Positions 16,507-63,464 of a stretch of DNA of 64,000 nucleotides are shown piece after piece (position 1 is the stretch's first letter; every line of letters starts with the position of its first letter). The translations under genes were made by a program, and so were the position numbers. The DNA comes from Botryllus schlosseri (lineage: Eukaryota). The stretch spans positions 26,104,001 through 26,168,000 of the forward strand of contig CM119371.1 in assembly GCA_051294905.1 (NCBI GenBank), in the 5' to 3' direction. The notes under the pieces are model-generated. The model did not search any database. It was not told where the DNA came from and worked only from the letters and a program-made list of their open reading frames with translations.

Positions 16507-16600
16507 GCCTCCATTGTTTAAAAGTCAATCAGTTGCAGTAAATCAGGTATATATACCTTCATGTTGTGTTGAAAATGATGATTTCCACATTACTTTAGAC

Positions 16601-27797: not shown

Positions 27798-30719
27798 CCG
27801 TAATTTTTCCAAGTATAGCACGCCCCCATGTATATTACGCACCCCTAAAATAGCATGTAAATTCTGGGAAAAAGCCTGTACCCATGTATAGTGCACACCC
27901 TGCATTTCAGTACATGAATAGTTCCGATTTCGTATACGATGTCATTCTGTTTTGCGATGTCACTCTTGTTGAACTACCATTACACAACGATCGCTAATCA
28001 GTATACAATAAGCGGGATTGTCTTTAAACGATAATAGATAGCAGCCAAAGCCTGCGAGGCGGGCGGCGCGATAGTTTAGACTAGCGACACGACATCTTGA
28101 GCACAAGGAGACCTCTCACAGATGCGATTGCTAATCATTATACAATTAACGGTATTGTCTCTAAACCAGTGGTTCCAAACCTTTTTCGGTGGAAGGGCCA
28201 AATTCAGAATTTCCGAGTACGGTCGGGGCCGCACGAATACCATGGCAACGAAATGAACTCAAAATAGTCACCAAAATATGAAAATTGGCATTGTTTCGAT
28301 CATTCGCTTGACGCCATTGGCCATTGTGTTGCCGTGCTCCCGATGTTCAGAACAATCAACCTTTGGTGGCTATTTCGGAGTAGTTTATTGCCCTGGCGAG
28401 ATTTCAATTCGTTTTTTGGAATCAGTGCAACACTTGCTTTCGATAAACACCGGCATATCAAATTATTCGGACGCTTCAGTCGCGAGCTATAGGACTACCA
28501 ATTATGCTGCCTTTTGCCGGTTAAGCAGTACGCATCTCGGCGTATTCAATCGTGAGTCACTTGTTCCACATCTATCCGTAAATTTAGTTATCAATACCCA
28601 GGGCCGTAACAGCACTTCGTCAGGCCCCCCCGAAACGTTGCTCTTGCTCCCCCCACATAGGGTGATAAACCGATTTTCGAAGCCCCCCCAGACCCCCCTC
28701 AGGCTAAACGTCTGTTTACCGCTATTTATCATCTAAATCGGGTGTCCGTTTTAGGCAGCTACTCTCGACTAATCGCGCCAGGCGCGAAAAATTTCTATAA
28801 TTCATGATTGAATCGGTCAATATAATCGGGAATTGCCTATATAATGGTATCAATTTTTATCCTTTCTCTGCTCACGTAATCAGATTGACCGGTTGAGCCG
28901 AGTGAGTTGTGTTTGAAAAGGTAGGACCACTCAATAATAATTAAACATCTTCGGGCGTATACCCGTTGGCAGGAACGAAACAGCACTTTGTTAGGCCCCC
29001 CAAAACACTTAGATCTTGAGCACCCATAGGGTGATAAACCGACTCCCCGCACCGTTGTTCGCTTCTGCCACGAAATCAGGATCACCGTTTAGTGAGCCAG
29101 CGAGCAGCGCGAAAATTTTCAATAATTCAAACTATAATAGGTCGATAAGATCGGGAATTGCATATATCTTGCTATCAATTACCTGTCCTCTGTTCTCACG
29201 TAACCAGACTTACTGGTAGAGCTGAGTGAGGTGTCTTGGAAACTGTAGGATCCGTAAACAATAATTAAACACTTCGTTACATGATGTTATTTCGTGACCT
29301 CCAGTCTGCTATATCAAAAAATATAGAATCCCCCAAATGTACTAAACTAAAAGATGCACACGATTTCAAATAGATAGTTCTTCACTGGGATATAATTTTT
29401 CCCTGCGGAATGGTAGCCTATTTGTCTCGTGAGGTTCAGATTGCCAAGACAGGAATATTCGGCGCCAGTCATTTAGGCGCATATGGTCAATTATACCTAT
29501 ATGTATTTTGTGTATACATAACGAAGTTTTCGGTCAGCGTAAGGGCAGTCCTTTTTAGTGAAGGTTTTCTCGCTGCCGATCGTTCTGGCACACTTCTTGG
29601 AGTCGCATGTTACATGGCCTAAAACTTTATAGGTCTACGTGCGTCGTGGGACGGTAATGGCCAACGCCGATATGCCTACTTCTATAAATCTTGCGTATTT
29701 GATCTTGGTGGAAGAGTACCCAATAATGAAGGTACTCGGAAACTTGAAATCGCGCTTGAATTTTTGAAACAGTTGCATAAAATTTTATAAAATACTCTAT
29801 AATTTATGCTAATTCACTAATTAATTTTAAGCTACCTTCTAGCTTAAAATACGCAAGGGACTTAGGGTACCTATATCTATACCAATATCTATAGGTAGCC
29901 CCTACTGCTCGTTCAACTGGAAAATTAGGACACATTGCATTGAAACAGCAGTGACGTAACGTTAGCAGTCTAGTCACAACTTTCCTGCAATCCTAATTGA
30001 AAACTCCAGACTTCAAGCCAAGCAAGAGTATTTTATAAATATATTTTTTTCATAAATCGATTTCTCAATATTTTTGTGGGGGCAGCATGAAGGCTAGCTG
30101 GGGGCCGCATGCGGCCCTCGGGGCCGCGGTTGTTGGGAATCACTGCTTTAAACGATAGTAGATAGCAGCCAAAGCCTGCGAGGCCGGCGGCGAGTTAGTT
30201 TAGGCCAACGAACCGACATCTTGCGCGCGATGCCTATTACAGATGCGATTGCGCCTAGGCTAACGGTTATGTCCAGCAGATCTGTTGGAGATGCGATTAT
30301 ATCTTGCGCTAATGGCCTCTTGTATATGTATAAATTGCATATGCGATTGTTCGGGCCTGTCGTTAACGCTATGAATTGGTGAGAATCGCCGCGCGCCAGT
30401 GTCTATTAATGACCTAATTTCACTCGTGTACAAACGGCAACCAACTCAGCAGGAGATCGCGTGCTTGTGCACACGACTCTCGTTAATTGGCAACACGCTT
30501 CCCACTAATTGGCAGCGCGTTTACACTCTATAATACAAATTACTACTTGCGATGGCTGAAAGTGGTGCACGATTGGAAACAAACAGGAAGATAGGTGTGA
30601 TTTCAAGTTTTTTATCGGAAGAGATTTTTTTTCAAGGCTTGTACCCATTTATAATACGCACACCCTATTTTAAGCAGAAAATCGTGAAAATTTTGCGCAT
30701 TATACATCGAAAATTACGG
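27798..30719. mobile_element. non-autonomous Tc1/mariner (Tc2/Kanga-like) element
   Basis: TA|CCGTAATTTT ... AAAATTACGG|TA, i.e. TA TSD. Same family directly follows the ZF exons (35399, 40624). Confidence 0.75.
28167..30145. mobile_element. hAT/Buster MITE nested in the Tc2-like element
   Basis: CAGTGGTTCCAAAC / GTTGGGAATCACTG; TSD ctctaaac / ctttaaac. Confidence 0.8.
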
Positions 30720-30908
30720 TATATGGCAAAATTTCATCTAAGGCGGTCATTACGTTTATGTCAGTCCCGAAGTTTGAACAGTTATGAAGCGAAGCGAAAC
30801 TACCTCGTGATCTCTCTAATTAAAAAAATAAAAATTTGGTTTTCAACGATTTTGCAAATTTGGAGGATTCACGGACCCGTGGCTGAGAACCACTGTATTG
30901 GATTAACC

Positions 30909-31777
30909 CAGTGGTTCTCAACCTTTTCTGTCTTCGCGGACCCCTTAAGTTTTCGTTCAAATTTATCTCAATTATCGTGCAACGGTGATATGACTTGCGC
31001 AAAATTTAACTGTACAATAGTGATAAACAGCAACAAAATGGCTTATCTTAAAAACATTATCATACATTATGTAGAAATTGCAGTGTTTACCAGCAACAAA
31101 ATGACTTATAAATAATAACATTCATTATGTAGAAATTGCATTGATTTTGTTATTTCAAACCGAATTTTGCAGGTGCATTCATTGAAATAAGTGGTCGTGT
31201 CTTGAAAACTCGTGCTTTTGATTTGATATGAACGAGTGCTGCAAATCCATTTCCTTGAAGATAGGTGACAGGGAATGTAATATTAACATGTAACGCTTTC
31301 GACGACACCGTAAGGCTTCAAAATTGAGAACCATATTGTTGAATGATCGTGCGGCTTAGCCATTCCTATCTAGCAGTTCATTTTGAAGTGATTCTTGAAT
31401 AGAGGGTTAATCTATGTTTATTACAGAACAAAATGGTTCGAAAATGTCCATTTCTTGCGACTGCTCATGCTCAATAGTTTGCTGAGACTGGCAACTTGTA
31501 AAAATTTCAAAGTAACCGGATTGACCTTAGTACTCTAAGTTTATACTTCATCACAAACCCTGTCTATTTATCAATTAAAATGAATATGTATAGTAGAATA
31601 TTTCATTTCCGACGGCCATTTTTGTAATGCGAGTCGTAAAGTTTTACTAGTTAGGAAGCGATTCTGTCTCGTGATTTACCTTATTAAAAAGATACAAATT
31701 AGTATAACAATCATTTTGCAAATTTGGAGGTCTCGCGGACCCCAAAATGCTTCGTGACCCCCGGTTGAGAACCACTG
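30909..31777 (-). mobile_element. hAT/Buster derivative, inverted relative of 14432-15372
   Basis: CAGTGGTTCTCAACC termini; flanks gattaacc / tatcaacc; internal homology to 14432-15372. Confidence 0.8.
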
Positions 31778-33394: not shown

Positions 33395-35395
33395 TGCCAC
33401 GAAGAAAAGCAAGCTGCGGATCTAGTATCAACTATTGATCACGACTTGAAACAACGACGATTCGATATATATTGGAAAGCATTTGCCACGAATAGTAACC
33501 TCGAATGTCATATGGATATGCATAGTGGAATAAAAAATCCTGAATGTGATGTGTGTGGGAAAGCATTCACTAAGAAGCCTTACCTCAATAGTCATATGGA
33601 TATGCATGCTGGCATCAAAAATCATACATGTGCTATATGTGGAAAAGCATTCTCTCAGAAGGGTCACCTCAATCTTCATATGGATATGCATGCTGGAATC
33701 AAACATGTTTGTGATATATGTGGTAAAGCATTCACTCAGAAGCGCACCCTCAATTTGCATATGGATAAGCATGCTGGAATCAAAAATCATGTTTGTGATG
33801 TATGTGGTAAAGCATTCACCCGGAAGGACGCCCTGAAGTTGCATACGGATAAGCATGCTGGAATCAAAAATCATGAATGTGATGTGTGTGGGAAAGCATT
33901 CACTAAGAAGTCTTACCTCAAGAGTCATATGGATATGCATGCTGGCATCAAAAATCATGTTTGTGATATATGTGGTAAAGCATTCACTCAGAAGGGTACC
34001 CTCAATTTACATATGGATAAGCATACTGGGATCAGAAATCATACATGTGCTATATGTGGTAAAGCATTCACTGAGAAGGGTACCCTCAAGCTTCATCTTG
34101 ATAAGCATGCTGGTATCAAAAATCATGTTTGTGATTTATGTGGGAAAGCATTTACCGAGAAGGGTACCCTCAAGCTTCATCTGGATAAGCATGCTGGCAT
34201 CAAGTATCATGTTTGTGATATATGCGGGAAAGCATTTACTGTGAAGGGCAGCCTCAAGGAACATATGGATATGCATGCTGGCATCAAAAATCATGTTTGC
34301 GATATATGTGGTAAAGCATTCACTCAGAAGGGTACCCGCAATTTGCATATGGATAAGCATGCTGGAATCAAAAATCATACTTGTGCTATATGTGATAAAG
34401 CATTTACTGTGAAGGGCCACCTCAAGGAACATATGGACAGGCATGCTGGCATCAAAAATCATGTTTGTGATATATGTGGGAAAGCATTGACCAAGAAGAG
34501 TCAGCTCAAGCTTCATATGGATATGCATACTGGCATCAAAAATCATGTTTGTGATATATGTGGGAAAGCATTTACCAAGAAGAGTCAGCTCAAGCTTCAT
34601 CTGGATAAGCATGCTGGCATCAAAAATCATGTTTGTGATATATGTGGAAAAGCATTTACCGAGAAGGGTACCCTCACGCTTCATCTGGATAAGCATGCTG
34701 GCATCAAGAATCATGTTTGTGATATATGCGGGAAAGCATTTACTGTGAAGGGCCACCTCAAGGAACATATGAATATGCATGCTGGCATCAAAAATCATGT
34801 TTGTGATATATGTGGTAAAGCATTCACTCAGAAAGGTGCCCTCAATTTGCATATGGATAAGCATGCTGGAATCAAAAATCATACTTGTGCTATATGTGAT
34901 AAAGCATTTACTGTGAAGGGCCGCCTCAAGGAACATATGGATATGCATGCTGACATCAAAAATCATGTTTGTGATATATGCGGAAAAGCATTCATTCAAA
35001 AAGGCCACTTCAAGGAACATATGAATATGCATGCTGGCATCAAAAATCATGTTTGTGATATATGTGGTAAAGCATTCACTCAGAAAGGTGCCCTCAATTT
35101 GCATATGGATAAGCACGCTGGAATCAAAAATCATACTTGTGCTATATGTGATAAAGCATTTACTGTGAAGGGCCGCCTCAAGGAACATATGGATATGCAT
35201 GCTGACATCAAAAATCATGTTTGTGATATATGCGGAAAAGCATTCATTCAAAAAGGCCACTTCAAGGAACATATGGATATGCATGCTGGCATCAAAAATC
35301 ATAAATGTGACATATGTCGAAAAGCATTTACTGTGAAGAGCAACCTCAAGCATCATATGGATAATGCATGCTGGCACCGAAATTCACTATTGTGA
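33395..35395 (+). CDS. terminal exon of tandem C2H2 zinc-finger protein (21 intact fingers)
   Basis: Acceptor ttttctttag at 33394, in frame CHEEKQAADLVSTIDHDL; 28-aa C-x2-C-x12-H-x3-H repeats with HAGIKNH linkers; leading degenerate finger; last finger frameshifted. Confidence 0.9.
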   Translation, partial: CHEEKQAADLVSTIDHDLKQRRFDIYWKAFATNSNLECHMDMHSGIKNPECDVCGKAFTKKPYLNSHMDMHAGIKNHTCAICGKAFSQKGHLNLHMDMHAGIKHVCDICGKAFTQKRTLNLHMDKHAGIKNHVCDVCGKAFTRKDALKLHTDKHAGIKNHECDVCGKAFTKKSYLKSHMDMHAGIKNHVCDICGKAFTQKGTLNLHMDKHTGIRNHTCAICGKAFTEKGTLKLHLDKHAGIKNHVCDLCGKAFTEKGTLKLHLDKHAGIKYHVCDICGKAFTVKGSLKEHMDMHAGIKNHVCDICGKAFTQKGTRNLHMDKHAGIKNHTCAICDKAFTVKGHLKEHMDRHAGIKNHVCDICGKALTKKSQLKLHMDMHTGIKNHVCDICGKAFTKKSQLKLHLDKHAGIKNHVCDICGKAFTEKGTLTLHLDKHAGIKNHVCDICGKAFTVKGHLKEHMNMHAGIKNHVCDICGKAFTQKGALNLHMDKHAGIKNHTCAICDKAFTVKGRLKEHMDMHADIKNHVCDICGKAFIQKGHFKEHMNMHAGIKNHVCDICGKAFTQKGALNLHMDKHAGIKNHTCAICDKAFTVKGRLKEHMDMHADIKNHVCDICGKAFIQKGHFKEHMDMHAGIKNHKCDICRKAFTVKSNLKHHMDNACWHRNSLL

Positions 35396-39288: not shown

Positions 39289-40620
39289 TGCCATAAAGAA
39301 AAGCATGTTGTGGATCTAGTATCAACTATTGAGCACGACTTGAAAGAACGACGATTCGATATATATTGGAAAGCATTTACGACGAATAGTAACCTCAAGC
39401 GTCATATGGATATGCATATTGGAATAAAACATCCTGAATTTAATGTGTGTGGGAAAGCATTCACTAAGAAGCCTTACCTCAAGAGTGATATGGATATGCA
39501 TGCTGGCATCAAAAATCATACATGTGCTATATGTGGAAAAGCATTCTCTCAGAAGGGTCACCTCAATCTTCATATGGATATGCATGCTGGATTCAAACAT
39601 CATGTTTGTGATATATGTGGTAATGCATTCACTCAGAAGGGCGCCCTGAAGTTGCATATGGATAAGCATGCTGGAATCAAAAATCATACTTGTGCTATAT
39701 GTGGTAAAGCATTCACTGAGAAGGGTACCCTCAACCGTCATATGGATATGCATGCTGGCATCAAAAATCATAGTTGTGCTATATGTGGTAAAGCATTCAC
39801 AGAAAAGGGTACCCTCAACCGTCATATGGATATCCATGCTGGCATCAAAAATCATGTTTGTGATATATGTGGTAAAGCATTCACTCAGAAGGGTACCCTC
39901 AATTTGCATATGGAAAAGCATGCTGGAATCAAAAATCATACTTGTGCGATATGTGGTAAAGCATTCACTGAGAAGGCTACCCTCAAGCTTCATCTGGGTA
40001 GGCATGCTGGCATCAAAAGTCATATTTGTGATATATGTGGGAAAGCATTTACCGAGAAGGGTCACTTCAAGCTTCATATGAATATGCATGCTGGCATTAA
40101 AAATCATGTTTGTGATATATGCGGGAAAGCATTCACTGTGAAGGGCCACCTCAAGAAACATATGGATATGCATACTGGCATCAAAAATCATGTTTGTGAT
40201 ATATGTGGTAAAGCATTCACTCAGAAGGATACCCTCAATTTGCATATGGATAAGCATGCTGGAATCAAAAATCATACTTGTGCTATATGTGATAAAGCAT
40301 TCACTGAGAAATCTACCCTCAAGCTTCATCTGGATAGGCATGCTGGCATCAAAAAGCATGTTTGTGATATATGTGGGAAAGCATTTACCGAGAAGGGTCA
40401 GCTCAAGCTTCATATGGACATGCATACTGGCATCAAAAATCATGTTTGTGATATATGCGGGAAAGCATTCATTCAAAAAGGCCACTTCAAGGAACATATG
40501 GATATGCATGGAGGCATCAAAAATCATGAATGTGACATATGTCAAAAAGTATTTACTGTGAAGAGCAACCTCATGCATCATATGTATAATGCATGCTGGC
40601 ACCAAAATTCACTGTTGTGA
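39289..40620 (+). CDS. terminal exon of C2H2 zinc-finger paralogue (12 intact fingers)
   Basis: Same acceptor (AG at 39288) and in-frame CHKEKHVVDLVSTIEHDL; two leading degenerate fingers; same frameshifted NACWHxNSLL tail. Confidence 0.88.
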   Translation, partial: CHKEKHVVDLVSTIEHDLKERRFDIYWKAFTTNSNLKRHMDMHIGIKHPEFNVCGKAFTKKPYLKSDMDMHAGIKNHTCAICGKAFSQKGHLNLHMDMHAGFKHHVCDICGNAFTQKGALKLHMDKHAGIKNHTCAICGKAFTEKGTLNRHMDMHAGIKNHSCAICGKAFTEKGTLNRHMDIHAGIKNHVCDICGKAFTQKGTLNLHMEKHAGIKNHTCAICGKAFTEKATLKLHLGRHAGIKSHICDICGKAFTEKGHFKLHMNMHAGIKNHVCDICGKAFTVKGHLKKHMDMHTGIKNHVCDICGKAFTQKDTLNLHMDKHAGIKNHTCAICDKAFTEKSTLKLHLDRHAGIKKHVCDICGKAFTEKGQLKLHMDMHTGIKNHVCDICGKAFIQKGHFKEHMDMHGGIKNHECDICQKVFTVKSNLMHHMYNACWHQNSLL

Positions 40621-44492: not shown

Positions 44493-44665
44493 ATAATAAG
44501 TTATAGTCTTACTCAATGATGTTTACTTCTTATTTTTGTTGCTACCGCAGTAGCCTGACCTCGAGGCCCACGCGTTTTTAAAGGTTTCACTTCATCTGCG
44601 CCCACATAACTAGCCTGTTGTGATCTCGTCGAAACTTTGGTCTGCGCATCTATACCGTATTTCAT

Positions 44666-45713
44666 ATGATTTCTTCGATAATAAACTCTGCCCACTACCG
44701 CATTGTCGATGTAATTAACCATCGCATCGAACAGGTCAATCACAATCGCCACAAACGAATGCGGATGCTTAGAGGAGTATACAAGGATGTATGTACTATA
44801 TACAATAGTATATGTGGACGAGCATTCGCCTGTAAGTCAGCCGTCACCCTTCATTTGGATACACATGTTGGCATGAAGAATTATGAATGTGATATATGTG
44901 GAAGAGCATTTTCTCGGATGAGACACCTCAAGCAACATTTGGATATGCATGCTGGTGTTAAAAATTATAAATGTGATATATGTGGAAAAGCATGTACCCA
45001 GAAGGGGCATCTGAAGCGTCATATGGAAGTGCATGCTCGCATTAAAAATCATAAATGTGATGTCTGTGGGAGAGCATTCGCTTGGAAGATTGACCTCAAG
45101 CGTCATTTTGATGTGCATGCTGGCATCAAACGTCATGAATGTTTTATATGTGGGAAAGCATTCACTAAGAAGGGTCACCTCAAGCATCATGTGGATATTC
45201 ATGCTGGCATCAAAAGTCTTGAATGTTATATATGTGGGAAAGCATTCACTCAGAAGGGTCACCTCAAGCGTCATGTGGATATGCATGCTGGCATCAAAAG
45301 ATTTGAATGTGATATATGTGGAAAAGCATTCAATCAAAAGCAAAAACTCAAGTATCATGTGGATGTACATGCTGGCATCAAAAGATTTGAATGTGATATA
45401 TGTGGAAAAGCATTTATTCGAAAGGATACACTCAAGTATCATAAGGATCGGCATGCTGGCATCAAAAATCATGAATGTGATATATGTGGAAAAGCATTCG
45501 CTGAGAAGGGTCACCTCAAGTATCATTTGCATGTGCATGCTGGCATCAAAGGTCTTCAATGTGATACATGTGGAAAAACATTTAATCAGAAGGATAAACT
45601 CAAGTATCATAAGGATCTACATGCTGACATCAAAAAATCACATATGTGATGTATGTGGGAAAACATGTGACCAGAAATGGGATCTCAAGCTTCATATGGA
45701 TGTGGTTGTGTAA
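44666..45713 (+). CDS. third, more diverged C2H2 zinc-finger array (9 intact fingers); start uncertain, 3' frameshift
   Basis: ORF 44666-45649; an extra A in CATCAAAAAATCAC shifts the next finger ([17 protein letters not shown]) into another frame; eroded fingers on both sides. Confidence 0.8.
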
Positions 45714-48691: not shown

Positions 48692-49877
48692 TTATATACA
48701 TATGTGATCAAAGTAGTCGCAGATACTACTCATGTATAAGTAGGGGTGAAGCAGTAATAACTTACTGAATTACAAGTAAAAGTAGCGATTCTCAAGTCCG
48801 ATCAAGGCTACTTCATTGGCAGTGGAAACAAGGTCTTCACGGTACAGGCCTACCGCATTACAAATCTATTTTGTACCTCCTAAAATCCACAATAGGAAAA
48901 GTTTTGTCTGAAAATCTGCTCCATTAGAAGGGGAAGTAGCCTAGAGCAGAACCATCCGAGTAAGTAATGCAGGTACCCGAAACGCAGTGAGTATTTCTAA
49001 GAAGTAGGAGTATTTTGTTACCTACAACATTGGTTATATAATAATTTAATGAAGCTCATATACTTGTAACAGGTTATTTGCTGAGATATCGGACGACGCT
49101 TCAAAGTATTCTACAAAAAAGAAAATAGCCGTGCATCCAAAAGTTCTGAAGCTTGTTATGCTCATGAGGAAAACTGAAGTCTGAGGATATTCAAGTAACG
49201 TCCGTGAAGACGACAATAAATGCCTTGACGCTGCATCATTGAACTGTGATTACAAATGGAGTCGCCTAAAGGCAGAGGTGGTCAAAGTCAAATCTGGTAC
49301 ACAAGCAGCAGTAGAAGTAACGCTTTTACCCTATGACAAGAAGGAGTAAGATTTCCAAGAGCTGTCAAAATTACCTCCGGTAGAAGTAGGAAATTGGTAT
49401 TGGTAAGTACTCAAGGGAGTTGTTTCCAAAGTACATTTGGTTGACGGGTCACATAATCAAGCAGTTGACCCGAGGTTCACGCCTAAAATTGCACAGTGCA
49501 TCTTGGTGACTCGATAGTCGACCTAATAGTGACCACTAACTCAACAGATAGTTGCAATTTCGGTAATTGCGTTCAGTTACGGTGATGCAGGGGCTCTTTC
49601 CAGCAGTTGTCATGACAATTTCGCTCATAAGAATATTGTGAGCAATTCCCCAAACTACCCTCTCTAAGGCCCTTTTCATACCGGATTTACGAAACTCTTT
49701 CGGAAACAAGTTCCGAAACAGGCGACGTTCACATAGAGAAAAAATTACCGAAACAGTTCCGGGAAAAGGCCGCGTTCATACCTATTTAGAGTTACCGCGA
49801 ACTTATGTTCATACTGGTCGTTTTTTCGGTAAATTCGCGGGAAATTATGGCCAGTATGAACATGCTTTCTCGTAAAC

Positions 49878-51673
49878 ATGGATAGTTACGAAACCATGTC
49901 AGTGGGGTGTTCCACTTGTTATTTGCTCATCGACTCTGCGAGAACCTTGGTGTAATCTGTAATGGATGTATGGAAAGCGATGAGACAGAAGCGTCTTCGT
50001 CAACAGCGGAGACGTTGGCTGCAGTTCGAAGCTACAGAATACTGCGGGGATGCGTTCTTGATGTGTATGGGAATCTATACCAGTACCAGTATTGGTGCAC
50101 GCTCGTCTTCCCGGCTTGTTTATTGTCATCCAAAAGCTAACCAAGGCTATTGGGATAGAGTTCTAGAGTTCTGGAATGAAAAAAACTACACATCCCATCT
50201 GCGTATGAAAAAGTCAGTTTTCCTACCGTACCGTATATGTATACTGGTGTGTGTAAATGCAATCTTATCTACAGAGAAACTTTCAACATACTTTGTGACG
50301 AGATTCGACCTGAAATCGAAAAGCAGTCGACAAATTATAAAAAACCAATTTCCCCCGATTGCCGGGCAGCTATCGCTCTGTGGCGGCTAGCCAATGGAGC
50401 AACATATCGAGAGATTGGGGAGCATTTTGGACTGGGTCTATCAAGTGTTTATATGGTAAGCATCCAGACTAGTAACGTTGACCGCATGGAAAATCTCCTT
50501 AGTATGCCACCCTGTAGATTTGTATATTACCAGCAGCCAGGCAAAATTTTGAATGTCCTGATAATATGACACTTGTTTTTTCTTATTTTTGAGCGTGAGG
50601 CCAAATTTCCATGAACAATTGATTGTCATTTTCGCTACTTTTTATACAGATTACATTGGACGTATGCTTGGTCATCTCCAATGAGCTGTTAACAAAATAC
50701 GTTCAGCTGCCTGGGAATTTTCAAGCTGCTGCCAATGCCTTCTGCATGCAACACGGCTTACCCAACTGTGTCGGGGCTATAGATGGTTGTCACATCGCAA
50801 TTCCCAAGCCATCCGTAAATGGTGATGACTACTGGAACCGCAAAGGATATTATTCGATCAACATGCAAGCCGTTGTTAACCACAAAGGAAGGTGAAATCC
50901 AAAACTCAAACTATCTAAAGTTTGAAACCACACCAGAAACATTTTTTAACGAGTGTCATTGAAAATTACAGGTTCATTGATGTCTTGATCGGCTTTCCAG
51001 GAAAGGCTCACGATTCCAGAGTTCTACACAATTCGCAAATTTGGGAACGGGCACAACATGGAACTCTTTTCCCCCCAGTAAGCGCAGTTGCCCCTCATAT
51101 AGTTCTGCGGAACATTTATTATATTTTCTGAAGTTGTGATAACGGAATGTCAATATGGCACTCATTTTTACTTATCAAAAATATGTACCAAAGTCATGCT
51201 TTCAGAGCGACTTCATGATCGGGAGCCAACGAGTCCCTTTCTACATCATTGGTGATGCAGCCTACCCCCTTCTGCCATAGCTCATGAAGCCCTTTCTCGG
51301 AGAGACGGACAGAGCAGAGGCTAACTTCAACTATGTAATATCAATTGATATTCCCCCTCCCCTACCTTCAAATTCACTATAGATTATTTTTCAGAAACTA
51401 AGCAAAGCTCGCATGACTGTTGAAAGAGCTTTCGGGCGACTAAAATCGAGATGGCGGGCGCTGCTTCGAAATTGTAACGCAAGTCCCGCAAAGGCCAGGA
51501 CGATAATCGCGTCCTGCATCGTGCTGCACAATTTTTGTGAGCTCCACGGTGATTTCATGGAGGACACAGACGATGATGACTGCAATGATGACAACGAAGC
51601 GTTATTGGATGATTCAAGCACCGCAGGCACAGACGTCAGAAATGCTCTACGTGATTTTTTGAATGAAGAATGA
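49878..51673 (+). pseudogene. Harbinger (HARBI1-like) DDE transposase, 6 exons, with nonsense codons
   Basis: GT-AG exons 49878/49962-50212, 50275-50455, 50650-50891, 50972-51077, 51206-51334, 51395-51673 join in frame; motifs GAIDGCH, NRKG, HDSRV, GDAAYP, VERAFGRLKSRW; TAG replaces the usual Trp at 51278; TAA at 49953 if the upstream ATG is used. Confidence 0.92.
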
Positions 51674-52186
51674 TCATTCATGTTAATCGAAGGACTCTGC
51701 GATTAACATGATTTGCTTCATTTTATTAAAGAAACGAATAAGAACTTATTGCACGGTTCCATCCTCTTTTATCAGCATTCTCCATCAGTCTGCAAAAAGA
51801 TGAGTTGGGGCAGTTTTGGTTATAAGACGGAAACTTTGCGACAGCAATAAATTTAGTAGAAGTACCTTGAAACAAATTGACAATTCCTTTCAATCTTGAA
51901 ATTAGGAGGAATGTTGGGGGAGGTGAAAGCGAAATTAACGAAATAACAACTTGACTGATGAGTAATTGCACATTTTCATCAGGGTCGGCCTGCAAAAGTA
52001 TCAGTTACTGTTATGAATGATTTAGTAGTGTAAATGTATGAGTGACGTACAATAAATATGTAGGGTGTCGTGTCACTTTAGACTAGATTACCTTGAAATA
52101 ACTGAACGATTCCTTTCATTCGTAAGAATGTAGGAAGAGGCAGCGGCGAAAACGAAACGAACGAAAGGTTCAATATCGGACATGGT

Positions 52187-55100
52187 TCAATTTCGATCAA
52201 TTTCAACTGTGGTAGGCGAGTCATAGTGAGGGTCGTCCATCTCTGATGTGTCGTTGCTATCGAAGTATTAGGTGTTAAAAAATCCCATATTCAGTGTAAT
52301 ATATGATGTGTGACTAACCTCCGCACAACAACATATCCCTGATCACTGGCTGGCCTTTGTCTGTAATAAAATTGACCATTTAAGATCATCTGTTGGCATA
52401 ACATTTTTGCCAAATTCGGAGTAAAGTCAGTAAACTTTCAAGTGACTCACCCCATCAGTATCTGCATGATTTTGAGATCATGTTCTCTGTCTTTTTCGCT
52501 CTGCTCTCTCTACAAAACCGCACAAAGATGGTCAATAAATGTGATCATATCCAGATAAGTAGGAAGCTAGTAGCCATCATATGTAATTAATATTGTGTAG
52601 ATAAACATCTGATTGCAACACGGTATTCTTAGTTTCATATTTGATGATTCTTGCCTACCTGAAACTCAATCATGCGCTCCATTCTCTGGTCTGCTCTCTC
52701 ATTCAAATCTTCCATCACATCACCTAAAACCAATGTACAAACAGGTTCAACGTACACATTTGGCTAGTCAACATCTATCAACGATTCTTTTCAGTTGTGA
52801 CATACAGCAAACCCAGTGATGTCAATCATCCAGCATGCGAAGCTATTCAGCACATTTCTATCAAAAGCTGATAAGGAATATCTTTACGATAAACCCACGA
52901 GACGACAAATGCCGAACATGCCACATTATAATCATTAGGACTAAAACAAGGTATCATGAAAGTATGCCAACTTACATTGTGGTAACCTGCAAGTTAGAGC
53001 CACTGTGTTCAATCGGTTTGTCATCGAATTTTGCCAATATCATTGCTTACGAATAAACCTTCACATTCTGTATAGGCTTGATAATGAAGCATTCCAGTGA
53101 TCAATTAAGGTATGGACTTGAATCTAACACTTCGGCATCATTTGATTGGTTCAGGCCGCGAGTGATCAATAAGTTAGAATCCGGCCCACAACCCGTATTC
53201 AGTTTGACAACCCGTGTAACCCATCAAAAACCCTTACGTAGTTGTGCACCATGACGCCCTCTTCCAATCGATCCTGAAAAATTGAACAATCATTTAGTGA
53301 TGATATAAATTTAAAAAAATCAATGTCCAGTTGAAAGAAGCAGTCAATAAATAGTGGTCAGGAACGCAACAACGAAGATAGAAATATCATAAACAGCTCA
53401 CATATGCAATTCGATCATAAATGGGATCTACAACTACGTACGACTTTATGTTATTAATAACCACAACGAATATTGAACAAGCATCCCTCACCACTGTCCG
53501 AAGTTCGCCTCCTTTTCGACTGGGACTGAACTCGGCATCACTGCTGCTAGCCGTGGACGGTCTGCAAGCGCCGCCTAGCAAAACAAATTGAGCAAAACTA
53601 GTTCCATGATTATGAACCTAAACCCAGACTTTGCAACTTTGCTACATTTCTAACAGGGATGGTGTGAACCTCTGAAAGGTTCAGGTTCGTGAGAACGCGA
53701 ACCTTTTTGAAAGGTTCTGTGTGAACGCGAACGTGAACCTCATGACGTCACGTGACATCATATTGCTAATTCCAACCCTACATTTCAATGAAGTGATATC
53801 CTATAACAATGTACGTACACGAAACACGATACCTAACGACGACTCGGGCCGCAATGCTGTAGTACATATTGCCGTTTTAAATGTCACCAAATGAATCAAG
53901 TAAAGCAGTGGTTCCCAACCTTTTTCCATCCACGTACCACTTCGAGGTTTTATGCAGTGCTCGCGTACCACCTACATAAGTTACGCGTGCCGTAAGCGGT
54001 CAAAAATGTTTTCACTACTTATGACGTCATAATCACGTAATTGGCCTATGAGAGGTGTAAGAACTAGAGCGAATTGTTACCTAAAAACGGAGGATTTTGA
54101 CCTAAAAAAACTTAATTTTGACCAAATGTTGACCTCACGTATGCAAATTAGGTGTTTTCGCTCATAATGGTAAAACTGTACTACTTATATTCATTTTTGG
54201 TTGGGACTGTCTGTCCTTACGAAGTAGTTTGGCCTGAAAAAGCGTTTTTGACTTAAAAACAGACAAATTTTTACATGAAAAAAACTTTATTTCAACGATA
54301 TCTAGCCCTATGAGGAATTCCAGTAGTTACACCACGTATTATGGTAGAGTTGATTAAAATGTGTTGTAGTACAACGAAAGATTCTTTCCTACATTCTCGG
54401 ATAGAAAGTGTCTTTCCTTACTAAGTAGCTTGTCAAGAATGGAGAAAGAGCGTTCAACAGCAGCATTTGTTGGCTGACAACACTGAAGTTGTGTGTAGGC
54501 CTGCACTGCTGGTGACACACCATGTTGCTTTGTTATGACCATGTTGTCAGCATCACAATTTCTCATCATGCGCTTCTTGATATAAGAACCATGCAATGCG
54601 CAAACAGTCTTGCTCCCGTTGGGATAATGTGGGACGTTGACCATAACACCATGTCAATTGTCAACCTTTTTGTTTCGATTGACCGCTTATGATTCACCAT
54701 GAGCAGACAATGGGCCGTCTACAACGGTAGGCCTATAAAGTAGGCTATGAGCTGTAAAATATCAAATGATAAGTTCACCGACAGTGCAAACTCTACAAAC
54801 GAAATGGAGGGGTCGAAAAAATTTTGATTTTGTAAGCAATTTTGACAATTTTTTTACCTAACGCTTCAATTTCGACAAAATTTTGACTCATTTCGACATG
54901 TCAAAAAATATCGCCCTAGTAATAACAAATTCCATTGAACTAGGCATTATCAGCCACGGCCGATGGGATGCAAGGGATCGTTTATTCCCCACTAGTCAAT
55001 AAACTTAAAAAAATTCAAAATCAACCCCACCTGAACTAATGACTCCCTTCGGCAGAAAAAAAAAGAATCTACTCGCGTACCACCTGGAAGACCTTCGCGT

Positions 55101-56230
55101 ACCACTAGTGGTACGCGTACCACAGGTTGGGAACCACTGAAGTAAAGCAATCAAATGATATATTAATCCCATAAAATCAATATCTACCGTTGCTTTGCCG
55201 ACAATTTCGACGAGGACATGCAAGGGAATATAAGGTTACGCCTTAACGGTCCAGGCCAGACCGGACAATGTATTCGGCGTCTGAGTATTGCTGCGTTGAT
55301 ATTGAGCAGAGTGTAAAACGGGTTTCTATACTTGCTACCGATACCGATATAAACATATGAAATCAAGATTGATCCCATACGCCAACTAGAATTTATTACA
55401 CCAGGGAACGATATCAATTTCATTGATTGGTTGAATAAGCCTCATTCGCTGACTACCTACATACACGTATTGTATTTCGCTCTTGATATTGTGTGATTGC
55501 GGGTCAAGCTCACAGCAGAGAGTCACTAAATATTCACAAACGGAATGCTGCATATTTCGAGCCAAGCAAGCAAGTAAGTAAGCAAGTAAAATAAGTAAGA
55601 TTGTCAAGGTGTATGCTCGTTTAGTGTTCATTTTTTTATGCTGCCAGCGCCATGCATAGAGTGGCCCGCAATTGAAATGCAATAAATTTCAACCAAAGAT
55701 GTTATAATGAAGTGGAAATTGTAATATATGAAAAAGGTTCACAGTGCAGAACCTACCAAGGTTCGTTTGTGAACGTGAACCTCTAAATTTCTGAGGTTCA
55801 CACACAGAACGCGAACGTGAACCTCGCGTTCACACCATCCCTAATTTCTACCCATAAACATAAACAAAATGCAGTACTCACCTTCCATTGAACTTAAGAC
55901 ATCTGGACGTGTAAGGTCCTTGTCATGTAGAATTGGATCCATGATATCATAAGCGTCAACGATGGACGATGGCATAACTGCCTCTCCCCCACCGGTCTTT
56001 CTTGTGGAATCCTTATATTTGCGATACTCGCGAATTAGTCTTTGCATCCGCTTGTAACATTGGTCATGATCCCGCCCCGGTAGAGATTTGGATATGGTCG
56101 TAAATATCTCCCTATTTGTTCCACTTCGATTTCTAATCTTTTGCTGGATGGTATCATCTGCCCAGTTGGTTACTAGGGTTATTGTCTCTTCTTTACTCCA
56201 AGTCACTCCTCTATATTTTTCCGAATTCAT
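52187..56230 (-). CDS. Harbinger Myb/SANT (trihelix-like) DNA-binding protein, multi-exon; middle exons uncertain
   Basis: Exon 56230-55882 WSKEETITLVTNW...IFTTISKSL...RDHDQCYKRMQRLIREYRK; later exons 53574-53492, ~52722-52658 (DVMEDLNERADQRMERMIEFQ), ~52510-52452 (REQSEKDREHDLKIMQILM), ~52361-52320 and 52256-52187. Confidence 0.75.
53654..55843. mobile_element. hAT element in intron 1 of the Myb/SANT gene
   Basis: CAGGGATGGTGTGAAC / GTTCACACCATCCCTA; TSD atttctaa / atttctac; subterminal GAACGCGAAC repeats. Confidence 0.85.
53906..55139 (-). mobile_element. hAT element with dimerization-domain remnant
   Basis: CAGTGGTTCCCAACC termini; perfect TSD AAGTAAAG; LQCCQPTNAAVERSFSILDKLL on minus at ~54420-54490. 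Confidence 0.9.
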
Positions 56231-57264
56231 GATATATTTACGCCAATAGTTTCTGCAAATTATCATAAATTATCCTTCTCCTTCTTCAGTCATGGCATCA
56301 CAGAATTACAATACACCAATATTATATACAAAATAGGGTTAAGTTTGCGACTACGACGTCAACGATGTACTGCAGCTATCGAAAATACTACCCTACTCAA
56401 TATATTGGATTCCTATCAACGAACTATAGGTTCTCGCGTATACACTATACAGCTGACTTCGAAACAAACACACCATCCAGAATGCAACAGGGGTTAAACC
56501 CGCTCAGACGCCAAACGCCAGACGCCAAACGCCGCGCGGCGGCCGAATGTCTATACGGCGTTTGGCGTCTGTTATGTTCAGACGCCGAGTAGCTATACGG
56601 CGTTCGGTGTCTGTTCAGACGCCGAGTAGCTATACGGCGTTTGGTGTCTGTTCAGACGCCGAGTAGCTATACGGCGTTTGGTGTCTGGTATGTTGAGAAT
56701 AGGGTTTGATTTGAAGGTTGAGGCTTGAACAGGAGTTTTATGCAGCTAAATCTAAGCAAAGCATGTCATATCATTGGCCAGTGGGCAAGTGGTTTGATGG
56801 TTGTTTCGTGTGTACCTGTACAGTGTACAGTCCTGTACACTGACTGTACCGTACACGCTACTAAGTGACGACATCGCGTGTGCTTCGGTGCTGGGTCGAC
56901 ACTGAAGATCTGGCTGCTTGAGAACATACACGTTTCGTATTAGACAGATCGTCAGTCACGTTACTACAGATACTGCATGATTTGTTGCTGGAAACTTAAC
57001 CACCGCAAGAAGATTACAGTATGTGACGTGTAGTAACAAGATATTTTATTGTTTTCTAGTAGGCCTATAGTTAGTTAGTGATTCTAGACTAGACTGAAAC
57101 AGCTGCAAAATCCTTTGTATCTCCACTTCTGTATCTCACTTTGTATCTCCACTGCTGTGGTAAATCAACAGTTCGCGTCACTGAGATCGTATTCAAGACA
57201 CACCTAAAATTTCGTTTCCATATTACTCCGCAAAATTCTACACAACACAAGTATACTCCAACAG

Positions 57265-59197
57265 ATCTTCGGTTGTGAGAAGTTCAAGGTTAAAGACCAG
57301 GATTGATGTTCAAAAAGATGGATGAAATTGTGGAGTACTTGCTTTGAAGGTTTGTGATGCGTTCACTTATTGAGATTTGAGAAAATTGATTTGTAATCTA
57401 CTTTCACGTAATAGGCCGCCGAACTCTACCCGATGCAAACCTGGATTTTGATCATTCTCGACGAGCTTGCGAAAGCTACCGCCAGCAGTTTGGTCAAATC
57501 TTGCTTGATGCGACGGGTATGTTAGTCAATGTTGGATTAAAACCATTTTAAATACGTAGTATGTTTTGCATGCAGATGAATAAGAATTGGGAGATTATTG
57601 CGCTGAATGCAGTGGTCCAAACCCAATAAAAAAACATGAAATGGGTAGGGGAAATGTGGCACCGATGAGACAGTGGGACCGAAAATACTTGAAAAATTAT
57701 CTGAGATAATCCTATGATTACAGTACGTGAATTTGTCTATAAATGCATGCTGGCAAAATCTTTCACACTAACAAACCAGCCATTATTTTTAATGTGAAGT
57801 GTAGGGCTTGTATCAGGGTATATAATGCCACATCTTTTTTAATTCAATACCATCCTCAAGTTGACTATTTTCAATTCAATTACAATATTTATAGGGTTGG
57901 GGGCCTATGGTACCATAACCAAATCAAGCAAAATGTTTGAATCAACTAATCACTTAACAACAGAAACACGCCTACACATATAGAGGCTGCAAATCATAGT
58001 TTCCTGTGGTGCTTTATCACTATAACGAGGTAATTGAAAGTCAAAATGTCGATTTACGGGTAACATGTATGTGCCAGGGCGTAAATCGAAACGCGATTTT
58101 ATTCCAACATTTGAGTTGATATAGTCAAATAATCTATTTTATTCTTGAAGGTGGTCCCAGGTCCCATGATTGTGTCACTCGTGTGCCTTTGGACCTGCCG
58201 AGTGGGGACCAACGATGCGTTCGAGCAACAAATTTTGAACGTTCATGAATATTTATGAAAAAGCGGATATTCATGTAAATGTCCAAGATACGTAGAGCTT
58301 GGATCAAAGTGTTGAGCCAGCAAAAGATATATTCTCGGCTGAAGATTTGAGGACCAGAGAACATTTTGCAATTTTTGATCCATCGCAGGGTTGTAACCAA
58401 GTCACAAGGCTGCGAGTCACAAGTCAATCTCACTTTTACAGTTTTGACTCGAGTCAAGTCGAGTCATTTTCAATTTACCATCGAGTCAAGTCCGAGTCCA
58501 AGTCATCGAGCAGCGGTTCGAGTCCGAGTCATGGTGTTATGACTCGAGTCCGAGTCCAAGTCATCGAGCAGCGGTTCGAGTCCGAGTCATGGTGTTATGA
58601 CTCGAGTCCGAGTCCAAGTCATTGTGTTGACTGCTCAGTGCTCACTTTCCAGTTAAGGTCATGTTAAACCCACTTTTATAACTCTATTTGGTGATATCGA
58701 ATGGTTCGCATTTATATTATACTAATTTTCCTCACATTTTGCCGTTTCTGGTCGCATTTTCAAGTACCAGTAGCCTACTAATAGACAAAATCCCAATAAG
58801 GTGGTTACTATACTATTTTTCGAAATTACAATGAAATGTCGGTCTTTGCCGTCTGAGTCTCGAGTCATATGACTTGGTTCGAGTCATGAGCAATGACTCG
58901 AGTCCAAGTCGAGTCAATACACAGATTGACTCGAGTCGAGTCATTTCCGTATTTTGAGAAAATGACTCGAGTCAAGTCGAGTCATCAAAAAATCGTGACT
59001 CGAGTCATTACAACCCTGATCCATCGGTACCGCATCTTTCCTATGCAATTACGAGATTACATTTGTCAGGTATATTGATCCTAACTTGTTTCCAGGATGC
59101 GTGTGACGGCTGTGGTCGATGGACGCACGAGCACTGTTGCTCGGGACAGCAGATACCTGATCCTGATTTTTATTGCATGCTATGTACCCAGATGTAA
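57265..59197 (+). pseudogene. decayed spliced Ulp1/SENP-like protease C-terminus plus PHD finger
   Basis: Exons 57265-57349 (QKDG*NCGVLALK), 57415-57516 (NLDFDHSRRACESYRQQFGQILL), 57576-57644 (YCAEC...KW) and 59096-59197 (CDGCGRWTHEHC...FYCMLC*), each bounded by AG/GT. Confidence 0.7.
58386..59018. mobile_element. hAT MITE with GACTCGAGTC repeats
   Basis: CAGGGTTGTAA termini; perfect TSD ATCCATCG. Confidence 0.92.
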
Positions 59198-59224
59198 ATT
59201 CTAATGTTTATATTTTATTTAGGA

Positions 59225-59510
59225 AATTTTACTGTGGTTTCGTTGCTTGTTTCATAATGATTTTTACTGTGGTTTCATTGCTTATATCTCGGTCACTTTT
59301 ACTGTGGTTCCACTGCTGGCTTCTCAATGATGTTTGCTGTGGTTCCATTGCTTATTTCTCTGTGACTTCTACTGTGGTTCCACTGCTTATTTCTTTGTGA
59401 CTTTTTCTGTGGTTTCGTTGCTTGTTTCTAAATGACTTTTACTGTGGTTTTGTTGCTTGGTAATTTTTAATGTGGTATTCGTTGCATATTTCTTATTGTG
59501 GTTTCATTAC
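59225..59510 (+). repeat. degenerate ~32-34 bp tandem repeat
   Basis: Repeated TTTTACTGTGGTTTCGTTGCTT units. Confidence 0.75.
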
Positions 59511-61142
59511 ATACTGTATCTACAGACTTGGGTCTGAAATTCATTGCGAGTGTACAAATAAAGGGTTGGGTTCAAGTCACTACCTTCGAATCACGAGTCA
59601 TTGCACATTTTGACTCACTCGAGTCAAGTCAAGTCATTTTAGCAAAGTGACTTGGGTCGAGTCAAGTCATGACTCGAGTCATCCCAACACTGATATGGGG
59701 TGGTGACAGGGTTGTAACCAACTCAATTTGACTCGAGTCATTTTCAATTCACCACCGAGTCAATTCCAAGAGCACTGGGTTGAGTCCAAGTCATGGTGTT
59801 TAATGTTCCCCCATCCAGTTCAGCTTTAGGTCACTTCTGTGGAACTGTCGGGGGGTGATATCGAAGGCCTCAGATAATTCATATCTTCATTTTTCCCACT
59901 CTGAACATGTTTATTGTAACAGATAAAAGGCAGGTTTAGGGCCTATTTTTCATTTATCAGTCCTGATATACTATTCTTGAATAAGCCATAGAATGAGTAA
60001 ATCCATTTTTAAGTCGAGTTAGTAGCATAACGACAGGAGGTGATCAAGTAGGTCTTTTTAGAATCTGAACATACAATCATTTGGGATTCTGCCAACGCTT
60101 ATTATGAAAAAATGTAACAATATGCAATTTTCGGTATCATATAGTTGCGAGAACTCAATAGTCGCGCCATGAAAGGATTTAGCCTCTGCTCAGTTTACCG
60201 AGACACCAAACGCCGTATAGCTACTCGGCGTCTCAACATACCAGACGCCGAACGCCGTATAGCTACTCGGTGTCTGAACATAGCAGACGCCAAACGCCGT
60301 ATAGCTACTCGGCGTCTGAACATAACAGACGCCAAACGCCGTATAGCTACTCGGCGTCTCAGAAAACCAGACGCCAAACGCCGTATAGACATTCGGCCGC
60401 CGCGCGGCGTTTGGCGTCTGGCGTTTGGCCTCTGAGCGGGTTTAACCCCTACTCCCAGAATGAACATAGCGTTACCGTAACAAAAAGTATGATTGACAGC
60501 ATTCCGGGAACACAGCAGCGCCATTGGTGTTCATACCGGGTATGCCCCGTAAAAATCTCCGAAAATAAGCACGTTCATACCGCCTCGAAAGACCAGTGTT
60601 ATGTTCACATAGACGGGTTCCGGTAAATATTTTCGGGAAATGTTATTCCCGAAACTCCGGTATGAAAAGGGCCTAAAGCGTCAAATGTAAACAGTTTTGC
60701 CTACAGTCAATTTAGTAGAAGTGGACACAGTTTAAAACCATAAACACTCGATAAAGTATTACAAGTATCCAAAACCTCCTTGAGTATACTCTGAGTCGAA
60801 GTACTTCGTTACTGGCTACCTCTGTGGTCAGATATATGAAGGTGTGGACAGTGCTGGGGTGAAAGATTATTTAAATCATCAGCAGAAATGGGATATCTGA
60901 TATCAGAGTAGTGCAACGAAAGCAGTGGCGACAAATAGCGATATCGGCAGAATTCGTCATTAAGCGTTGATCTAGCCAGTACGATTCACAAATTTCTTCC
61001 TCTTCAAGTCATATAAAATATGCCAGTCAATGACTTGGGTCGAGTCATGCGTAATGACTCGAGTACAAGTCGAGTCAATCCAAATATTGACTCGAGTCGA
61101 GTCGAGTCACCAAAAATTCGTGACTCGAGTCATTACAACCCT

Positions 61143-61430
61143 GATAAAGACTGAATAATAGGGGTCCTGAACCTAAAACGGAGCCCTGTTGTACACCACA
61201 CAATATGTCACCCTTTTCAGAAGGTAGGTGATCCTTACTGTAAACATATTGACATCGATTGGTAAGATAGCTTGTAATCAAATCCAAGGCTACACCTCTG
61301 ATACCATAACACGAGAGTTTACTTGTAAGTATTGTCGACAGTGTCGAAAGCTTTTTTTTTATATCAAGAAAAACAACACATGAAATCATACCAGAGTTGT
61401 GTCAACAGAGTATAAGCTTCAACAAAGTCC
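61143..61430 (-). pseudogene. non-LTR retrotransposon (CR1/L2-like) reverse-transcriptase fragment
   Basis: VFLDIKK(AFDTVD)...KLSCYGIRGVALDLITSYLTNRCQYV...GVQQGSVLG..PLLF. Confidence 0.85.
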
Positions 61431-62282: not shown

Positions 62283-63464
62283 GACATATGAGCATGCGAC
62301 ACAATGGAAAACGACAGTTCAGCATGGAACACATCAGCATGCGTCACTTAAGCATGTGACTTCATAACCCAAAAAACTTGGCACTTCTTCGATAGTAGGT
62401 AGACATCGAAAAGTGTTCACCATGATCACCAATGAATGTTTCTCATGAATACGAATAAAAATTTATAAACGTCAAAATATATTGTTTTTGCGTTTGGGGA
62501 GGGTTAGGGTCAAAGTTGGGTTTAGGGTATCCCAAGATTAGGGTTGGAGTATTAGGGTGGGAGGGGGATATTAGGGTTTGGGGAGGGGGGATATTAGGGT
62601 TGTGGGAGGGGGGATATTATGGGTTGGGGTTAGGGGGATATTAGGGTTGCGGGAGGGAGATATTAGGGTTGTGGGAGGGGATATTAGGGTTGCGGGAGGG
62701 GGATATTAGGGTTGCGGGAGGGGGGATATTAGGGTTGGGGTTAGGGGATATTAGGGTTGCGGGAGGGGGATATTAGGGTTGGAGTTAGGTGGATATTAGG
62801 GTTGGAGGTGGGTTAGGTTCAACGTTGGGATTAGATTACCCCTACCCGGGGTTTAACCCACCTCCAATCTCCCTTTCACCCAACCCTAATATCCCCTCTC
62901 CCACAGCCCTAATATAGCCTAACCCCAACATCCCCCTCCCACAACCCTAATATCCCCCTCCCGCAACCCTAATATCCCCCCTCCCGCAACCCTAATATCC
63001 CCCCTCCTGCAACCCTAATATCCCCTCTCCCGCAACCCTAATATCCCCCTTCCTAATCTCGGGATACCTAACCTCAACTTTGACCCTAACCCACCTCCAA
63101 TCCCCCTTTCCTCAAACCTTAATATCCCTCTTTCCCCAATCCTAATACCCCCCGACCCGACCCTAATATCCGTCTCTCCAAAGACACAAAAAACAACAAT
63201 TCAATTTGACGTTTATAAATTTTTATTCGTGTTCATGAGAAACATTCATTGGTGATCATGGTGAACACTTTTCGATGTCTACCTACTATCGAAGAAGTGC
63301 CAAAAACTTACCCTAACCCGAAGCATAGCCTAACCTAACCTAACCTAAAGCCTAACCCAACCATAAATCCAACCCTAACCTACCCCTAACCCATAATTTA
63401 ACCCACATGCTCATGTGTCGCATGCCAAAGTCTCGCATGCTGCAATGTCGCATGCTCATATGTC
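62283..63464. mobile_element. small inverted-repeat element with CCTAAC repeats, hosting a Merlin-like MITE
   Basis: GACATATGAGCATGCGACA / TGTCGCATGCTCATATGTC inverted repeat; absent from the paralogous segment near 12030. Confidence 0.6.
62380..63301. mobile_element. Merlin-like MITE with TTAGGG-containing minisatellite
   Basis: Near-identical TIRs to 10371-12000; perfect TSD AAAAACTT. Confidence 0.85.

Follow-up and report, generated by a model that had tools for sequence, protein, structure and literature searches.

Zisupton transposons (Bohne et al. 2012) reportedly have a C-terminal SUMO protease. Their target duplications are 8 bp long according to the accessible text of PMC12730594, and an 8-bp duplication is likewise given, together with inverted repeats of 236 bp, for the fungal element KDZ1 (PMC12730594 and PMC11343200, parts available). 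A transposase with a C-terminal Ulp1 domain and PHD finger was published in 2010 for Ginger1-9_HM, and the available part of that paper only speculates about DNA-repair roles of Ulp1 and PHD in transposases (PMC2836005). CACTA/CMC and ISL2EU elements have duplications of 2 to 5 bp, and CMCT ends read CA..TG (PMC12730594, accessible text).

The element described here was found in a 64,000-nt stretch of Botryllus schlosseri contig CM119371.1, referred to below as the window. With modest confidence, we read it as a degenerate member of a repeated cut-and-paste transposon family that has undergone an internal deletion; its most likely type is Zisupton/KDZ. It keeps inverted ends, an 8-bp duplication, and the last four exons of a likely transposase gene (an Ulp1/C48 tail followed by a C4HC3 PHD finger).

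Boundaries and genomic setting

The element, its flanks, and its nested inserts are arranged as follows.

49668..60673, no strand assigned: host Harbinger element with TAA duplication; DDE_Tnp_4-like transposase on +, Myb/SANT gene on −
56477..56484, no strand assigned: left copy of the 8-bp target-site duplication CCAGAATG, perfect match to the right copy
56485..60454, +: non-autonomous DNA transposon, 3,970 bp including nested inserts; multi-copy read depth
56489..56698, +: left terminal inverted repeat; its tandem subrepeats have units of 14 and 37 bp
57657..59029 (ends approximate), no strand assigned: high-copy repeat in intron 3
58386..59018, no strand assigned: hAT-like miniature element inside the intron-3 repeat, a label based on CAG ends plus a duplicated 8-bp ATCCATCG
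60196..60450, −: right terminal inverted repeat; its subrepeats have units of 42 and 14 bp
60455..60462, no strand assigned: right copy of CCAGAATG, perfect match to the left copy

The nesting inside a Harbinger, proposed earlier from the letters of the window, is borne out by the host bounds and their TAA duplication. The host transposase (+) has a TAG at 51278, and the Myb/SANT gene (−) has its ATG at 56230, with the inner element about 250 bp upstream of it.

The inverted arms of the inner element (56489-56615 and 60324-60450) match over 127 nt with 94% identity, and tandem subrepeats, with 3.1 units of 37 bp on the left and 4.6 units of 42 bp on the right, extend the inverted repeats to about 210 nt. 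They start 4 nt inside the element ends, the outermost 4 nt being mismatched (CAAC on the left, GAGT on the right, reverse strand). The two CCAGAATG copies are placed symmetrically, each 4 nt beyond the matched inverted repeat. Among just under 20,000 random position pairs, an 8-mer was shared by chance at any offset from 0 to 10 in 52 and at symmetric offsets in 17. In the one insertion examined, a 9-bp duplication also fits with one mismatch, and the match is perfect only at 8 bp.

The sequence-only reading had found no clean 8-bp duplication, perhaps a 2-bp AC, and had held that the termini do not let a superfamily be assigned. Both statements have to be revised: the perfect 8-mer is the better account of the flanks, so the 2-bp AC was rejected, and the termini do narrow the superfamily because of this overlooked duplication. 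A TTAA duplication of the piggyBac or Kolobok type was also discarded, since it would leave the inverted AGGGG/CCCCT beyond the element bounds and take no account of the 8-mer. An assignment to CACTA/CMC or ISL2EU was dropped because the 8-bp duplication explains the flanks better and the right end is not TG. No metagenome contig matched a 19-nt terminal pattern.

In DNA run X1, the depth of interior bins outside the nested inserts was 1,144 to 6,501 versus 40 to 65 in the left flank, contig depth not being equal to copy number, and shared differences at 57262, 57602, and 59080 occurred on 16 to 33 distinct contigs. By these depths and contig counts, which give no exact copy number, the element belongs to a multi-copy mobile family.

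Exons, domain remnants, and transcripts

The coding remnant and the adjoining stretches, all on the + strand, comprise the following features.

56907..57264, +: stretch unmatched by C48 that runs on into exon 1 in sister-copy RNA
57265..57349, +: exon 1; C48 oxyanion Gln at 57311, catalytic Cys at 57329, TGA at 57323
57415..57516, +: exon 2; final C48-domain helices, frameshift near 57430
57576..57644, +: exon 3; first PHD Cys pair, TAA at 57581, frameshift in an A-run, RNA reads sparse
59096..59197, +: exon 4; covers positions 15-47 of the Pfam PHD model (47 positions), stop TAA 59195-59197
59198..59562, +: likely 3' untranslated region, with repeats of 35 bp (59227-59459), AATAAA at 59557, and high RNA depth

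Four AG/GT-bounded exons had been proposed. All three introns are indeed GT-AG (65, 59, and 1451 nt; about 78 nt for intron 3 when the high-copy repeat is subtracted), but the 5' boundary of exon 1 has no general acceptor. Most sister copies have AAG in place of the CAG upstream of exon 1 (57262 C>A, at a depth of 2606 of 2665 in DNA run X1), and RNA reads run through the boundary, as all 137 that cover 57262 carry the A. An exon 1 with its own acceptor was therefore rejected, the CAG being peculiar to this copy. Loss of the transposase would go back to a deletion whose junction is probably located upstream of the C48 motif; its exact place was not found.

The lesions described earlier, two stops (TGA 57323 and TAA 57581) and one frameshift each in exons 2 and 3, are all present, and the motif of exon 1 reads as stated, Q-K-D-G-stop-N-C-G-V with the stop two codons ahead of the catalytic Cys codon at 57329. 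The C48-type motif (Q-x-D/N-x-x-x-C-G), which is followed here by terminal helices, occurs once in the six frames of the window. C48 similarity had been set as a test of the exons, and it was found with a profile built from 20 bacterial and endosymbiont sequences. Joined exons 1 and 2 scored 15.0 bits (with an E-value of 1.1e-6 for a single comparison, and with some circularity as regards the motif, because 16 of the 20 profile sequences had been picked by their catalytic motif), and none of 1000 full shuffles scored as high. The tile of exon 1 ranked first of 6384, with the same partial circularity. Exon 2 alone scored −1.5 bits, and its contribution to the joined score was equaled by 13 of 1000 exon-2 shuffles and 9 of 2000 random replacements (p about 0.005 to 0.013).

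The description of this copy as SUMO-protease cargo does not hold. The remnant comprises about 60 C48 residues, no upstream His/Asp segment from the element was among the 12 best C48-profile tiles, and a full His-Asp-Cys triad in one reading frame is absent, with TGA 57323 standing ahead of the Cys. Lacking the His/Asp segment and every transposase exon, this copy makes no protease. No transposase sequence was recognized inside the element, including a KDZ or MULE core.

The ligand spacing of a PHD finger was confirmed. When exons 3 and 4 are joined (X at one stop, one frameshift), they read C-x2-C-x14-C-x2-C-x4-H-x2-C-x12-C-x2-C, a complete C4HC3 pattern, the second half of which occurs once in the six frames of the window. 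Exon 4 alone gave 18.4 bits (E 0.0022) against Pfam PHD PF00628, below the curated cutoff of 24 bits. The aromatic residues of the finger presumably resemble an H3K4me3 cage.

Several searches used an exon-4 query that ended at 59176 and so lacked the last six codons, among them the final Cys, and their negative outcomes carry correspondingly less weight. With it, the protein search returned one candidate and 0 scoring matches, the Atlas gave a best score of 0.89 that is a lead only, the PDB gave nothing significant (best E 0.08; by name, four of the five hits were PHD-type, and one is a demethylase), and the lone hit of the representatives search, a bacterial Ig-repeat protein, was set aside as a repeat artifact. 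A Pfam scan of single exons (28 to 45 aa, exon 4 again to 59176) gave no C48 hit. Exon 2 yielded seven candidates and 0 scoring matches in the protein search and an uninformative best Atlas score of 0.78, and exon 1 had nothing significant in the PDB (best E 0.65). A mixed C48 alignment search produced seven hits among 951 candidates, all C48-only and none with a PHD finger. The metagenome protein search pointed to one locus among 373 candidates (42% over residues 6-41, the first 18 residues of the query being intron). Thirteen viral motif hits were all judged to be chance frames.

The element family appears to be transcribed, with RNA on exons 1, 2, and 4. The observed RNA depths were 70.7 and 49.9, with 77.7 and 47.0 expected for exons 1 and 2 and 140 for unspliced RNA; this pattern fits transcripts from sister copies with introns 1 and 2 spliced out. 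Spliced transcripts of the shortened family might themselves be functional, e.g., by encoding a short PHD peptide or by acting as RNA regulators that adjust how strongly the family is silenced, which we regard as highly improbable. In its favor, RNA depth in X24 was 50 to 240 over the exon-containing bins and the 3' region versus 0 to 2 over the left flank and left repeat, and a 430-nt contig of X16, only guessed to be RNA, covers 56907-57350, from which it differs by 4 letters and 22 gaps. However, exon 3, which encodes the first two PHD cysteines, is nearly bare (6 reads at 57602 versus about 140 on neighboring exons), the longest ATG-started frame in spliced models of this copy, located in the 3' region, has only 72 codons, and the library carries no strand information.

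Parentage of the element

Like Zisupton and KDZ elements, the element has an 8-bp duplication, terminal inverted repeats, a SUMO-type protease near the C-terminus (here its tail), and an intron-rich gene, a likeness judged from one insertion and from domain remnants that preserve neither a KDZ core nor a CxC or SWIM domain. It differs in the outermost 4 nt of its two ends, which are unmatched, and in the PHD finger after the protease, none being mentioned for Zisupton in the accessible parts of PMC12730594 and PMC11343200; a literature search found no paper joining Zisupton with Ulp1 or SUMO. Only the duplication length and the domain order bear on the superfamily, because neither a parent copy nor a transposase core turned up. 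Ginger1 elements share a transposase ending in Ulp1 and PHD, introns, and inverted repeats of 40 to 270 bp (PMC2836005, available part), but they have TGT ends and 4-bp CCGG/CCGT duplications; the element has neither TGT..ACA ends nor such a duplication, and identity with Ginger1 was rejected.

A Mutator-type parent (MULE, foldback, or Rehavkus-like) with the same anatomy and history ranks second as superfamily and seems possible, if clearly less probable. The long inverted repeats contain tandem subrepeats, the right end reads GAG, and, in the text available, MULE duplications measure 8 to 11 bp and Rehavkus combines a 9-bp duplication, a PHD finger, and a minisatellite before the 3' repeat (PMC6446971), to which the 35-bp repeats near the 3' end of the element may be compared; Ulp1 is also recorded in hydra and lancelet Mutator elements (PMC2836005, available part). 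Against this stands the duplication, perfect at 8 bp only, whereas Rehavkus is listed with 9 bp. No MULE core is present in this copy. We think it unlikely that the element is a non-autonomous member of another superfamily (hAT, P, or Merlin) that took up 3' exons from some other gene or transposon in the manner of Pack-MULEs, so that the exons were never its own transposase tail. Several superfamilies generate 8-bp duplications, the element readily accepts nested inserts, and it contains no transposase sequence, all of which would suit a capture. Yet the exons are common to many copies, and we know of no host SENP in which Ulp1 is directly followed by a terminal PHD finger, an order that is a known transposase tail (PMC2836005, accessible part).

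Under the favored Zisupton/KDZ-type reading, the parent gene would have encoded one long transposase-Ulp1-PHD protein, from which a deletion would have taken the transposase core through to mid-protease. The shortened element probably kept moving in trans, since its end repeats are likely, by prediction, to be transposase-binding sites. This copy would then have inserted upstream of the Harbinger Myb gene and later gained point mutations and nested miniature elements. The earlier proposal of a 3' end of a transposon protein coupling C48 to PHD stands insofar as a C48 tail precedes a PHD finger in a multi-copy element, but this copy encodes no working protease or reader. As found, the element matters little: it is mobile-element debris and ordinary in its layout, because the protease-PHD tail has already been published for other transposons.

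In the intact parent, the PHD finger would bind chromatin and the protease would deSUMOylate proteins located at the element or at its target site. An anti-silencing role is a hypothesis for that parent. A more elaborate version, which we consider rather doubtful, has the PHD finger at the end of a Zisupton-type transposase bring the SUMO protease to methylated chromatin, where silencing complexes on the parent's own copies would be relieved of SUMO. In this version the ends are cut 4 nt beyond the matched inverted repeat, and transcription and splicing of shortened copies that keep only the protease-PHD exons yield a regulatory by-product. If true, a DNA transposon of an animal would encode its own reader-eraser module against silencing. 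The corrected ends, with their 8-bp duplication and 4-nt unmatched tips, provide a probe for the parent family.

Ends and setting of the inner element

The feature described here, located in a eukaryotic window of approximately 40% GC with many repeats and C2H2 zinc-finger arrays, is real, and with its ends corrected it proves to be a dead remnant of a transposase layout already known. Its parts are as follows:

49668-60673, Harbinger (outer element), whose ends match and which is flanked by a TAA duplication
56485-60454, inner element, a 3,970-bp inverted-repeat DNA element
57265-57349 (+), exon 1, candidate C48 (Ulp1/SENP SUMO-type protease) tail
57415-57516 (+), exon 2, candidate continuation of the C48 tail
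57576-57644 (+), exon 3, start of the PHD finger
59096-59197 (+), exon 4, remainder of the PHD finger

The nesting inside the Harbinger claimed by the sequence-only reading is borne out by these coordinates. The plus strand of the Harbinger carries a DDE_Tnp_4-like transposase (weak Pfam match, E = 0.0018) and the minus strand a Myb/SANT gene (E = 2.9e-8), whose start codon has the inner element approximately 250 bp upstream. The Harbinger also shows damage of its own: the transposase frame is interrupted by a TAG at 51278, and an insert with inverted ends at ~53656-55843, containing a further nested repeat, lies inside the Myb gene region or spans it.

The inverted arms of the inner element comprise 127 nt (94% identity), and their alignment reaches ~210 nt via 37- and 42-bp subrepeats. 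A clean 8-bp target duplication had been reported as absent, but CCAGAATG flanks both ends (56477-56484 and 60455-60462), each time 4 nt outside the inverted repeat, and was missed because the search had been made immediately beside the matched repeat. The element is therefore delimited at 56485-60454, with unmatched 4-nt tips. The duplication was the single best answer of a search across offsets; among random pairs, such an 8-mer turned up in 52 of just under 20,000 draws when any offset was allowed and in 17 when the offsets had to be symmetric (20,000 minus a few skipped pairs less than 200 nt apart). For the single insertion examined, a 9-bp duplication with one mismatch may also be compatible.

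A probable C48 tail and a PHD finger

The proposed Gln/Cys motif, the Cys codon at 57329, and the stops at 57323 and 57581 are all present as first given. The three introns are GT-AG (65, 59, and 1,451 nt), and the third falls to ~78 nt when a high-copy repeat is taken out together with the hAT-like miniature element nested in it, the ends of the outer repeat being approximate. That repeat (57657-59029) has very high read depth and short inverted ends (GG-C/T-ACCGATG); the miniature element (58386-59018) belongs to a very abundant family marked by CAGGG ends, an 8-bp duplication, and GACTCGAGTC repeats, with relatives at 8651-9246, 59560-59770, and 61025-61145.

For the claimed PHD finger, exons 3 and 4 together supply the complete C4HC3 ligand set; taken by itself, exon 4 matches positions 15-47 of the PHD model below the cut-off (E = 0.0022), and Atlas and PDB comparisons gave PHD matches that serve as leads only. 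The Ulp1/C48 identity held in part. Single exons gave no C48 match in the Pfam scan. The joined peptide of exons 1 and 2 (X at the breaks) scored 15.0 bits against a C48 profile of 20 sequences (16 of 123 motif frames plus four proteins), in register through the splice junction. The underlying proteases were collected by motif, and all 11 domains scanned from those loci matched PF02902, one of them at the cut-off. None of 1,000 shuffles of the joined exons reached this score; with exon 1 fixed, shuffled exon 2 scored as high in 13 of 1,000 cases and random window pieces in 9 of 2,000. The exon-1 tile ranked first among 6,384 six-frame tiles. Because exon 2, taken singly, gives no positive score (-1.5 bits) and the seeds had been selected by motif, we assign exons 1 and 2 to the tail of a C48 domain with moderate confidence. 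No match to the His/Asp part was found upstream within the inner element by profile and six-frame tiles, and therefore only ~60 C-terminal C48 residues would be left.

Copies and RNA

Read data were taken from four of the 24 listed runs. In DNA run X1, depth was 40-65 in the left flank and 1,144-6,501 in interior bins outside the nested inserts, and 16-33 distinct contigs shared differences from the window copy at 57262, 57602, and 59080; contig depth is not equivalent to copy number, and the family likely comprises tens of copies. The objection that the exons might represent a single-copy host gene is thereby answered.

In X24, a bulk RNA run of which ~6% was read and which carries no strand information, depth was ~140 on exon 1 and beyond the beginning of exon 4, compared with 2-14 across the first half of intron 3. 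Two mixed bins showed 70.7 and 49.9, compared with 77.7 and 47.0 expected with only exons 1 and 2 covered, 83.4 in the second bin with exon 3 included, and 140 without splicing. These depths suggest that the introns are spliced out, no joint being found among the rows listed. Exons 1, 2, and 4 were covered; exon 3 was almost without RNA (6 X24 reads at 57602), its depth in X16, a further run presumed to be RNA, was lower than in adjacent bins, and the opening bases of exon 4 had 8 reads versus 179 at 59141. It follows that exon 3 is either omitted from the abundant RNA or altered in it. At 57262, each of the 137 RNA reads had A in place of C, and one X16 contig extends without a break through 56907-57350; the splice acceptor proposed before exon 1 is thus unused, and the RNA stems from sister copies sharing the shortened layout rather than from a gene for an intact transposase.

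Origin of the remnant and neighboring elements

The inner element is very probably a non-autonomous derivative that retained the tail of its own transposase. The parent gene would have encoded a transposase-Ulp1-PHD protein, an internal deletion may have taken away its front part, and the remnant would have spread in trans and later decayed. Fish Zisupton carries a SUMO protease; searches of the accessible literature found no paper joining Zisupton with Ulp1 or SUMO. We lean toward a Zisupton/KDZ parent, whose 8-bp duplication, as given in PMC12730594 and PMC11343200, is common to the inner element. A Mutator-type parent is less likely; for MULEs, PMC6446971 gives duplications of 8-11 bp, and for Rehavkus a 9-bp duplication together with a PHD finger. 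In PMC2836005, Ulp1 is reported for hydra, lancelet, and plant Mutators, Ulp1 and PHD domains are aligned between Ginger1 and Mutator transposases, and Ginger1-9_HM is listed with both domains.

Protein and metagenome searches, some with exon-4 queries lacking the last six codons, did not recover the parent. Capture of the exons by an unrelated element is improbable. That the short transcript is functional is highly improbable; the spliced models of the window copy contain no ATG-started frame of more than 72 codons. For the retained transposase tail, the related families predict chromatin binding and SUMO removal in the parent; an anti-silencing role is a guess.

Further elements were observed in the window:

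10361-12010 and 62283-63464, a pair of related foldback-like elements, G-rich tandem repeats filling the inverted arms
14470-31743, inverted arms (82-86%) set far apart, possibly enclosing a nest of elements of 17 kb
19737-22806, element whose inverted arms measure 468 nt (98%), apparently recent; weak, unrelated Pfam matches in its short open frames
33395-35392, 39289-40617, and 44624-45649, tandem C2H2 zinc-finger genes with 84-bp repeats, an unusual H-A-G-I-K linker replacing the usual one
61075-61401 (-), short frame that by eye looks like part of a LINE reverse transcriptase, with no Pfam match
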